Sequence record: OQ599310
Length of the DNA: 64,000 nucleotides
Strand: one strand, 5' to 3'
Source of the DNA: Escherichia phage 55
The notes beneath the pieces were generated by a model. It saw only the letters and a program-made list of their open reading frames with translations, was not told where the DNA came from and did not search any database. How positions within the stretch are numbered: the first letter of the stretch is position 1; the number at the start of each line of letters is the position of its first letter. This document shows positions 51,186-52,006 of the stretch, in pieces. The position numbers were made by a program, and so were the translations under genes.

Positions 51186-51259
51186 GGCCCTGTAGCTCAA
51201 CGGTTAGCAGCAGTCCCCTCATAAGGGAAAGGTTACCAGTTCGAATCTGGTCTGGGTCA
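51186..51259 (+). tRNA. tRNA with CAU anticodon (Met or lysidine-Ile type), imperfect stems
   Basis: Hand-folded cloverleaf: T-arm ACCAG/TTCGAAT/CTGGT, loop CTCATAA; one acceptor mismatch, 3-bp D stem, one G-A in anticodon stem. Confidence 0.55.
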
Positions 51260-51265
51260 TATATT

Positions 51266-51342
51266 CGAGGCATAGCTCAATTGTATAGAGCAACGGACTT
51301 CTAATCCGTAGGTTGAAGGTTAGAATCCTTCTGTCTCGACCA
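51266..51342 (+). tRNA. tRNA-Arg (anticodon UCU), CCA encoded
   Basis: Hand-folded: acceptor CGAGGCA/TGTCTCG, D stem GCTC/GAGC, anticodon stem ACGGA/TCCGT loop CTTCTAA, T-arm GAAGG/TTAGAAT/CCTTC, then ACCA. Confidence 0.85.
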
Positions 51343-51360
51343 ACTTTAAGTGAGGAAAAT

Positions 51361-51705
51361 ATGAAAGGCAATGTTTATCTGGTAGTTCATGATTTAACGT
51401 TTTATTTTAACGAATATGATACAGTTATTTCTCATCGATTGATTAATTCGCTGTATCAGCATGCCGATTACATCTATGTTCAAAATGAATTTGGTCATTG
51501 GAAGTTCATTAAAAACCGTTCCGGGTTAACTAGTTTTGAATACTTTGACCGTAAAGACCTTTTAAACGAAATCCCATTGCAACATCGGTTTCAGAAACGC
51601 GAATCATTATATTATTGCCGTCATATACCAAACGCCGAATGTGTTGATGAAGCAATTAATCTATGGCGTAGACGTAGAGAACAAATTGATGATATGCCAA
51701 AATAA
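51361..51705 (+). CDS. hypothetical protein
   Basis: ATG 51361 after GAGGAAAA RBS; ORF-track start 51313 lies inside tRNA-Arg. Confidence 0.6.
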   Translation: MKGNVYLVVHDLTFYFNEYDTVISHRLINSLYQHADYIYVQNEFGHWKFIKNRSGLTSFEYFDRKDLLNEIPLQHRFQKRESLYYCRHIPNAECVDEAINLWRRRREQIDDMPK

Positions 51706-51719
51706 GAAGCCGGGTCGCT

Positions 51720-52006
51720 ACCGGCAAGACGTCGGACTGATGTTCCCTGAGTAAGGACTGGTCTTAATAAATCTTTATGATTCGTTAATATCCCCTTACA
51801 TCACAGCAGAAACGGCGCACAGAATTATCGATTCGAGGAAATATCTTTGCCGTAAGCCGAGTAGCGTTTTTGACGGAACGTTCGGATATGGTCGAGATAT
51901 GGCCTTTTAAAATATTGAGTAGCGTCAACTACTTAATAACCGGGTTCAAATCCCGGCGTTTCGTACAAACACTTACCTAGTAGGTGGAAACCCCGACAAG
52001 GTATAT
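51720..52006 (+). ncRNA. candidate small stable RNA region (T4 rnaC/rnaD-like?) with tRNA-like T-arm
   Basis: ~290 nt without ORF in the tRNA neighbourhood; hairpin GCCGG..CCGGC at 51710-51725; T-arm CCGGG/TTCAAAT/CCCGG at 51940-51956; no canonical cloverleaf. Confidence 0.3.

Follow-up and report, generated by a model that had tools for sequence, protein, structure and literature searches.

Orthologues of the T4 species 1 and species 2 RNAs in the two-tRNA operon of Escherichia phage 55, and a tRNA-like fold for rnaC supported by covariation

Introduction

What does a T4-like phage encode behind a tRNA cluster of only two members? The genome of Escherichia phage 55 (record OQ599310) raises this question in the 64,000-nucleotide stretch analysed here (from now on, the window). 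A previous sequence-only reading had folded just two tRNAs, where T4 carries eight, followed by some 290 nt (51720-52006) free of open reading frames (ORFs) but with a hairpin and a tRNA-like T arm, which could correspond either to small stable RNAs like rnaC and rnaD of T4 or to the remnants of lost tRNAs. We report that positions 51186-52035 very likely constitute (with a rough probability of 0.85, given together with the explanation as a whole) one stable-RNA operon of a Mosigvirus-type (RB69-like) T4-like phage, made up of tRNA-Ile(CAU), tRNA-Arg(UCU), a small ORF, rnaD, rnaC, a trailer and an intrinsic terminator.

The rnaC and rnaD RNAs of T4, or species 1 and species 2 RNAs, are small RNAs known for 50 years, which places them among the oldest unexplained phage gene products, and no Rfam family matches them here. 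In T4, a single transcript of ~1.75 kb gives rise to the eight tRNAs and to the species I and II RNAs, and ends past the species I gene (PMC2330249). RNA sequencing of T4 infections detected both RNAC and RNAD, which were classed as late, and RNAC was also probed by Northern blot (PMC9697503). Papers from 2010, 2022 and 2025 describe the function of both molecules as unknown (PMC3014915, PMC9697503, PMC12685909).

A probable stable-RNA operon with rnaD and rnaC

A sensitive DNA search with positions 51706-52079 matched about 800 records of T4-like phages. Where the matching stretches are annotated, they appear as "rnaC" and "rnaD" (RB68), "species I RNA" and "species II RNA" (T2L) or "rnaC" (T4), with identities of 85-90% that bear out the suggested kinship with the T4 RNAs. 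The ends of both molecules (Table 1) were carried over from the T4, T2L and RB68 annotations through a four-way alignment (A1). The structured region turned out to be larger than first described, starting at about 51702-51709 instead of 51720, and extending to the terminator at 52035. It lies in a non-coding stretch between the stop codon at 51703-51705 and an ATG at 52080. Apart from short ones of 36-47 aa, this stretch holds no ORF, and none of these short ORFs stays open in the homologues. Both RNAs fold more stably than shuffled sequence, with z = -4.5 for rnaC and z = -2.0 for rnaD. Rfam, searched at gathering thresholds and also permissively (51000-52200, E <= 10), gave chance-level matches only in 51700-52040 (PyrR with 19 bits, NsiR1 with 17.5 bits, and others far below threshold).

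Gene order and homology of the operon agree with those of T4, T2 and RB68. The region shares 97.6% identity with Escherichia phage NHEP36 and ~95% with phages assigned to Mosigvirus, and the records of NHEP36 and of the Mosigvirus phages show the same two tRNAs, annotated as Met and Arg. T4 rnaC is homologous over its full length of 139-140 nt (~88% identity) and, in both phages, it stands downstream of rnaD as the final gene of the tRNA operon, ahead of the terminator; the differences from T4 amount to one A fewer in the U/A linker and a few substitutions. The cluster that precedes rnaC consists of two tRNAs and an ORF in this phage versus eight tRNAs and segB in T4, so that rnaC is retained even in a cluster cut to two tRNAs. 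The window rnaD has in common with its T4 and T2 counterparts the 5' hairpin, the basal stem, the length and the location immediately upstream of rnaC, and its apical module is of the T4/RB68 type, not of the T2L/BW-1 or JS98 types. Its annotated 5' end abuts, and in fact overlaps, the stop codon of the 114-aa ORF (51703-51705), whereas T4 has no such ORF at the equivalent site and its rnaD comes directly after tRNA-Arg.

The rnaC and rnaD elements are therefore already known as orthologues of T4 RNAs, and their presence is ordinary for a T4-type phage. For the window, the outcome is a correction of the annotation: one tRNA becomes a predicted tRNA-Ile, and rnaD and rnaC take the place of what the records show as nothing, as spurious proteins or as a false tRNA. 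Among the related records examined, most lack the two RNAs or present them as a "hypothetical protein", tRNA-Phe or tRNA-Lys, and rnaC is unannotated in the Mosigvirus records examined.

Table 1. Features of the stable-RNA operon in the window.
Feature	Position	Strand	Description and source
tRNA, CAU anticodon	51186..51259	+	ARAGORN; Rfam RF00005, 52.4 bits; no CCA encoded
tRNA-Arg(UCU)	51266..51342	+	ARAGORN; Rfam, 71.1 bits; CCA encoded at 51340-51342
Small ORF, 114 aa	51361..51705	+	Between tRNA-Arg and rnaD; ORF list; phrog_3355, E = 3e-50
rnaD (species 2 RNA) orthologue	51702..51822	+	Ends from T2L and RB68 rnaD annotations
rnaD 5' hairpin	51709-51725	+	Loop GUCGCUA at 51714-51720; closing pair covaries
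rnaD long hairpin, basal stem	51728-51734 with 51813-51820	+	GUCGUCG / CGGCG-C-AC; invariant basal stem
rnaC (species 1 RNA) orthologue	~51828..51967 (3' end 51965/7)	+	tRNA-like, ~139-140 nt; ends from T4/RB68/T2L annotations
rnaC acceptor-type stem, 7 bp	51829..51835 with 51957-51963	+	CGAUUCG / CGUUUCG; two U.U mismatches; U51828 as -1 base
rnaC 3-bp helix	51836-51838 with 51903-51905	+	AGG / CCU; columns invariant
rnaC long interrupted hairpin	51841..51900	+	Apical loop UUGACG at 51870-51875; covariation
rnaC unpaired GG	51901-51902	+	Never varies
rnaC 10-bp hairpin	51913..51938	+	6-nt loop CGUCAA at 51923-51928; both-side changes in 9/10 pairs
rnaC T arm	51940..51956	+	CCGGG UUCAAAU CCCGG; one A before the arm; abuts 3' strand of the acceptor-type stem
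rnaC 3' tail	51964..51967	+	Discriminator-like U + ACA; U+ACA in most sequences
Conserved 3' trailer	51968..52007	+	Hairpin CACUUAC-CUA-GUAGGUG at 51970-51986; motif GGAAACCCCGACAAGGU at 51986-52002
Intrinsic terminator	52008..52035	+	GCCCC...GGGGC hairpin and six U; fold

The fold of rnaC

Homologues of rnaC were gathered from phage records and from IMG/VR and, through a covariance model (R1), brought into an alignment (A5) of 31 distinct sequences from about nine T4-like groups: Tequatrovirus, Mosigvirus, Tegunavirus, Karamvirus, Gelderlandvirus, Kanagawavirus, Moonvirus, a group of Klebsiella phages and Citrobacter phage Ursula. Model R1 finds one copy in the window (51827-51967, 156.6 bits), and members of the T4 group score 157-164 bits. 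On A5, 93.0% of the 1671 cells of the fold are paired, a share that drops to 37-48% on sliding one strand, and changes on both sides are seen in 34 of the 54 pairs; a plain MAFFT alignment gave the same result. The fold of rnaC is thus supported by covariation, and corresponds to a tRNA that keeps its acceptor/T-arm half and has its D and anticodon arms replaced by a 3-bp helix, a bent hairpin of ~60 nt, an invariant GG, a U/A-rich linker and a 10-bp hairpin. Members of the family measure 141-145 nt throughout, including those whose long hairpin has an unrelated sequence.

Within the acceptor-type stem, the third pair is A-U in 13 sequences (T4 and the Mosigvirus group) and G-C in the 18 found elsewhere, and the two U.U positions become U-A and C-G in Tegunavirus sequences. 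The base that precedes the stem is a U in 30 of the 31 sequences, and bacterial RNase P favours a U at position -1. The long hairpin (helices 3 and 4) has both-side changes in 19 of its 23 pairs, with 92-96% of the cells paired. The CCGGG TTCAAAT CCCGG motif noticed beforehand was correctly read: this T arm is paired in all cells, with two of its five pairs compensated and with the equivalents of U55, C56 and A58 invariant. The 3' tail is U+UCA in Tegunavirus and U+CCA in the group of Klebsiella phages, where the rnaC gene (L013:1726-1869, L015:12187-12329, H151-H174) ends with a full tRNA-type 3' end.

Features that rnaC shares with a canonical tRNA, especially of class II, are the 7-bp acceptor stem, the T stem of 5 bp with its UUCRAAU loop, a discriminator-like base followed by NCA, and an extra long hairpin just 5' of the T arm; R1 gives weak matches (21-27 bits) to real tRNAs, chiefly tRNA-Ser. 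In rnaC, too, the acceptor stem stacks on the T arm, with its own 5' end (51829-51835) as the partner and not the strand chosen by ARAGORN. In contrast to a canonical tRNA, rnaC has neither a D nor an anticodon arm of normal size, lacks a 7-nt anticodon loop and fails RF00005, whereas the loop that could pass for an anticodon loop pairs with another loop and changes with it.

An acceptor/T-arm half that can be read by tRNA enzymes and sits on a non-tRNA body is also what the tRNA-like domain of tmRNA and the module of bacterial Y RNAs (YrlA) offer. For tmRNA, there is no ARAGORN call and no Rfam match, and rnaC has no tag ORF. For YrlA, the single Rfam match was below threshold (17.8 bits, against a threshold of 69) and fell on the real tRNAs only; moreover, the ends of YrlA form a Ro-binding stem, whereas those of rnaC form the acceptor-type stem.

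The sequence GAGUAGCGU occurs twice in rnaC (51859-51867 and 51917-51925), and the GUAGCG of these repeats is complementary to CGCUAC at 51716-51721, which comprises the loop and the first stem base of the rnaD 5' hairpin. This complementarity is not relied on here: a 6-mer match is weak and may be due to chance, and most genera have rnaC without rnaD.

A proposed contact between two loops

The apical loop of the long hairpin of rnaC, UUGACG, is the exact complement of CGUCAA, the loop of the 10-bp hairpin. The six pairs between them are kept in all 31 sequences (100% paired, versus 16-51% with one strand slid), and they are compensated at two positions, as UUGAUG/CAUCAA in Tegunavirus and as UUGGCG/CGCCAA in the Klebsiella-phage group. 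These pairs were not part of R1, and therefore the alignment had not been fitted to them. The covarying loops indicate a putative kissing contact between the two hairpins of rnaC, which we propose with no claim of priority over the species I papers of the 1970s. The constant length of rnaC fits a geometric constraint of this kind.

rnaD, the trailer and a modular operon

The consensus fold of rnaD has 96.9% of its cells paired and both-side changes in 6 of 24 pairs, and in the window its basal stem carries a single A.A mismatch (51729). The apical module of the long hairpin comes in three forms, similar in length but unrelated in sequence. In phage BW-1, a convergent adaptive single-nucleotide polymorphism (SNP) in rnaD enabled growth on host ECOR34 (PMC12685909). 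The SNP maps to L158:672 (record position 164264) as an A to G change on the RNA strand, which turns CACAG...CUAUG into CACAG...CUGUG, the T2L sequence, and restores a C-G pair of the apical hairpin. This pair-restoring view is absent from the account of its authors (PMC12685909).

Downstream of rnaC, the trailer is kept in T4, T2L, RB68, JS98 and VR20, that is, also where rnaC is absent. Its hairpin has one compensated pair in this window, and its motif GGAAACCCCGACAAGGU occurs only once in the window. The motif CACUUNCCUAGNAGGUGGAACCCCGACAAGGU is conserved ahead of the terminator, also in the rnaC-less JS98 (L006:2618-2660) and VR20 (L011:2120-2165), and the window trailer is devoid of a 9-nt segment, UGCCGCAAG, carried by T4, T2L and RB68. 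The trailer might be a separate 3'-derived RNA; purely as an analogy, the 3'ETS RNAs of bacterial tRNA operons, such as 3'ETS-leuZ, would correspond to a piece like 51968-52035, left after 3' processing and ended by the terminator. This terminator has a consensus fold with a compensated pair and is annotated as such in phage G53. A simple terminator scan missed it on the plus strand because its stem is long and interrupted, and we regard as an artefact the flag that the scan raised on the minus-strand reading of the rnaD 5' hairpin.

The arrangement of these elements differs among phages. In JS98 (L006:2493-2700), rnaD and the trailer are kept and rnaC is cleanly absent between them, and in VR20 (L011:1493-2203) two other GC-rich hairpins and a 127-aa ORF stand in the place of rnaC. 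In Karamvirus, Gelderlandvirus and phage Ursula, rnaC is found alone inside the tRNA cluster, between tRNA-Trp and tRNA-Gly. It follows that rnaC, rnaD and the trailer behave as modules independent of one another.

When a specific pattern was run against metagenome contigs and 185,579 genomes of bacteria and archaea, it recovered close T4-like relatives only, plus two false positives, and neither new loop variants nor a bacterial copy of rnaC appeared. A looser IMG/VR pattern, TCGAGGA...GGCCTT...TCCNNGCG, hit some 120 chance loci, and none of these matched R1.

Possible roles and alternative explanations

We suggest that the host tRNA machinery would cut these RNAs out of a polycistronic transcript, as reported for T4. 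RNase P would cut rnaC between U51828 and C51829, because the acceptor-type stem, the T arm and the elbow (the T loop together with the invariant GG) look tRNA-like, and trimming at the 3' side would proceed as far as the acceptor-type stem. The acceptor/T-arm half and the elbow would make rnaC resemble a tRNA to any enzyme that reads shape, which would explain both its processing and its stability. The loop-loop contact, in turn, would lock the body of the molecule and render decoding impossible: since the hairpin that replaces the anticodon arm is predicted to pair with another loop and varies with this partner, rnaC is presumably no adaptor in translation.

As a tentative proposal, with the odds still clearly against it, rnaC could be a non-decoding tRNA mimic that binds, and thereby titrates or recruits, a protein that recognises tRNA shape. 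Candidate targets would be a host defence factor directed against tRNAs, or a processing or modification enzyme. As for rnaD, it would be a separate RNA of two hairpins, with an exchangeable apical module and a host-dependent role. A broader and more speculative version, which we hold to be less probable again, would have rnaC as a distinct class of tRNA mimics, widespread in T4-like phages of Enterobacterales and ring-closed by the loop kiss, acting as a decoy or a sponge towards some host factor able to recognise the shape of a tRNA (for instance, a defence enzyme that cleaves tRNAs or modifies their ends). In that version rnaD would be a second RNA relevant to host range, as suggested by the adaptive SNP of BW-1, because it repairs a base pair. 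In either case, the comparative work supplies a covariance model and precise mutants, next to the two natural compensatory variants of the loop-loop contact, and makes the role of these RNAs experimentally approachable.

Several points weigh against our explanation. The RNAs of this phage are read from its sequence, with ends borrowed from annotations that disagree with one another by 1-2 nt. The AGG/CCU helix and the GG are invariant, and hence beyond the reach of covariation; in addition, the patterns used to collect homologues demanded the T arm and GGCCUU, so that invariance there is partly ascertainment. The nested structure guided the fitting of alignment A5, although the loop-loop pairs lay outside the model. 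The two U.U mismatches of the acceptor-type stem are present in 28 of the 31 sequences, and the tail of rnaC in this phage is ACA and not CCA. The covariation between loops comes from two evolutionary events, seen in 5 of the 31 sequences, and would equally fit an intramolecular kiss or a dimerisation. The role as mimic or decoy is deduced from shape, and the mapping of the BW-1 SNP assumes that the coordinates of the paper are those of GenBank OR125554.1.

The alternative that survives best, improbable as we consider it, is that rnaD, rnaC and the trailer are cis-acting modules for the processing and stability of the tRNA transcript, with no role in trans, and that their stable fragments are by-products. 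The blocks at the 3' side would guide cleavage by RNase P, RNase E and RNase III, and would shield the upstream tRNAs and the mRNA of the ORF from 3' exonucleases. In agreement with this, the elements always occur inside or 3' of tRNA clusters, just ahead of the terminator, the trailer and the terminator are retained in JS98 and VR20 despite the loss of rnaC, and no T4 phenotype has been reported in the accessible literature (PMC3014915). However, a passive block needs neither invariant loops nor a compensated kiss, a constant length or a T loop of tRNA consensus; rnaC lies in the middle of the cluster, and not at its 3' end, in Karamvirus and Gelderlandvirus; and the adaptive rnaD SNP of BW-1 points to a role specific to the host (PMC12685909).

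Far less credible is a third real tRNA at 51873-51966, a tRNA-Lys(UUU) with a long variable arm. ARAGORN does call it (94 nt, tRNA-Lys(ttt)), a CGGAACG/CGUUUCG pairing is possible in the window, and orthologues of rnaC are annotated as tRNA-Phe in KKP_3262 (L005:2547-2642) and as tRNA-Lys in G4500 (H145); a further one is labelled tRNA-Met by ARAGORN (L008:2551-2645). Nevertheless, RF00005 (gathering threshold, 29 bits) has no match in 51700-52040 even at E <= 10, and ARAGORN is inconsistent on the orthologues: it reads Phe(gaa) at the KKP_3262 locus and Met(cat) at that of UFV01, and makes no call for T4, phiR1-RT, EnC15 and Melville. Its acceptor pairing is without a single compensated pair and 12 of the 27 sequences break it at one position, in contrast to the compensated end-to-end stem; furthermore, the 5' strand of the ARAGORN stem falls within a hairpin that covariation supports. 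Minimum-energy folding gave the ARAGORN-type acceptor stem for the 3' 95 nt alone and the end-to-end stem for the full 140 nt, and it was covariation that decided: the tRNA-Lys is a misfold of rnaC and is ruled out on these grounds.

A similarly low probability applies to the idea, contained in the sequence-only reading, that the region is a functionless set of decayed tRNA pseudogenes from a larger T4-like cluster. Two tRNAs instead of the eight of T4 and a perfect T arm within rnaC would be expected from it, and the weak matches of R1 to tRNA-Ser make an origin from a class II tRNA conceivable. Against it, the architecture of 141-145 nt recurs in at least nine T4-like groups with its 34 compensated pairs, and such preservation of the fold across genera by compensatory changes contradicts decay; T4, with its full set of tRNAs, has both RNAs, and these accumulate stably during T4 infection (PMC9697503).

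Finally, a stretch coding for small proteins, which the 36-47 aa ORFs and the hypothetical proteins annotated there in many records might evoke, can practically be dismissed, since no frame is open through rnaC across homologues (stop-free codons in frame +1 are 46 here, 31 in T4, 16 in phiR1-RT and 15 in EnC15), close relatives differ by single-base indels in the linker, and the substitutions are pair-preserving doubles. Many other records carry a "hypothetical protein" coding sequence laid over rnaC and rnaD.

The two tRNAs

Both ARAGORN and Rfam recover the two tRNAs first described, CAU and Arg-UCU, and Rfam at curated thresholds finds no further canonical tRNA anywhere in the 64 kb. The covariance search for overlooked tRNAs was thus negative, and the claim of two tRNAs survives it. 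The contrast with the eight tRNAs of T4 was also well founded, and it is a known state: RB69 is reported with 2 tRNAs versus 8 in T4 (PMC1524935, Table 1), and most of the recent Mosigvirus genomes carry a pair, "methionine and arginine" (PMC12656860). The small tRNA set is the normal state of the Mosigvirus lineage.

The CAU tRNA had been described with a mismatch in the acceptor stem, a D stem of 3 bp and a G-A in the anticodon stem, and these details are seen in the Rfam alignment as U6.U67, the 3-bp D stem and G.A. The conclusion drawn from them, an atypical or decaying tRNA, did not hold: 72 of 74 bases are identical to the T4 gene annotated as tRNA-Ile or isoleucyl-tRNA (L004:1635-1708), and the unusual features are common to both. 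ARAGORN also labels this tRNA-Ile of T4 as "Met(cat)". The acceptor stem, GGCCCUG/CUGGGUC, contains the pairs C4-G69 and C5-G68, which the lysidine-forming enzyme TilS uses as determinants and which tRNA-Met lacks. Its start, GGCCC, aligns with the GGCCCCU of E. coli ileX, and not with the GGCUACG of metT. The CAU tRNAs of T4-like phages bear signatures of IleRS, and Nolan et al. expected a lysidine modification in them (PMC1524935). The match to T4 tRNA-Ile argues that the CAU tRNA is, as predicted from sequence, a conserved lysidine-type tRNA-Ile that reads AUA, and not a tRNA-Met or a decaying gene; if so, the two tRNAs of the operon would read AUA and AGA.

Searched with the CAU tRNA, E. 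coli genomes yielded a single marginal match (E = 7) to a plasmid tRNA-Ile, which was too weak to be used. One of the CAU tRNAs of Salmonella phage Melville (L152:1381-1456) is identical to the E. coli ileX sequence, which suggests a host-type tRNA-Ile2 gene in Melville.

Neighbouring genes and promoters

The 114-aa ORF between tRNA-Arg and rnaD has 68% identity to the trna.2 protein of T2L. The ORFs that flank the non-coding stretch gave no informative Pfam or PHROG annotation, and the next gene downstream of the operon begins at the ATG at 52080. Upstream, two identical and strong matches to sigma-70-type promoters (TTTACA, a 17-nt spacer, TATAGT and an upstream TG) occur on the plus strand at 49353-49381 and 49684-49712, ahead of the block of small ORFs that leads into the tRNA genes, which makes them candidates for early promoters of the operon. 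The T4 late-promoter motif TATAAATA is found at 52037-52044, right after the terminator and 36 nt before the ATG at 52080; the window as a whole has 19 copies of it, where chance would give 7.7.

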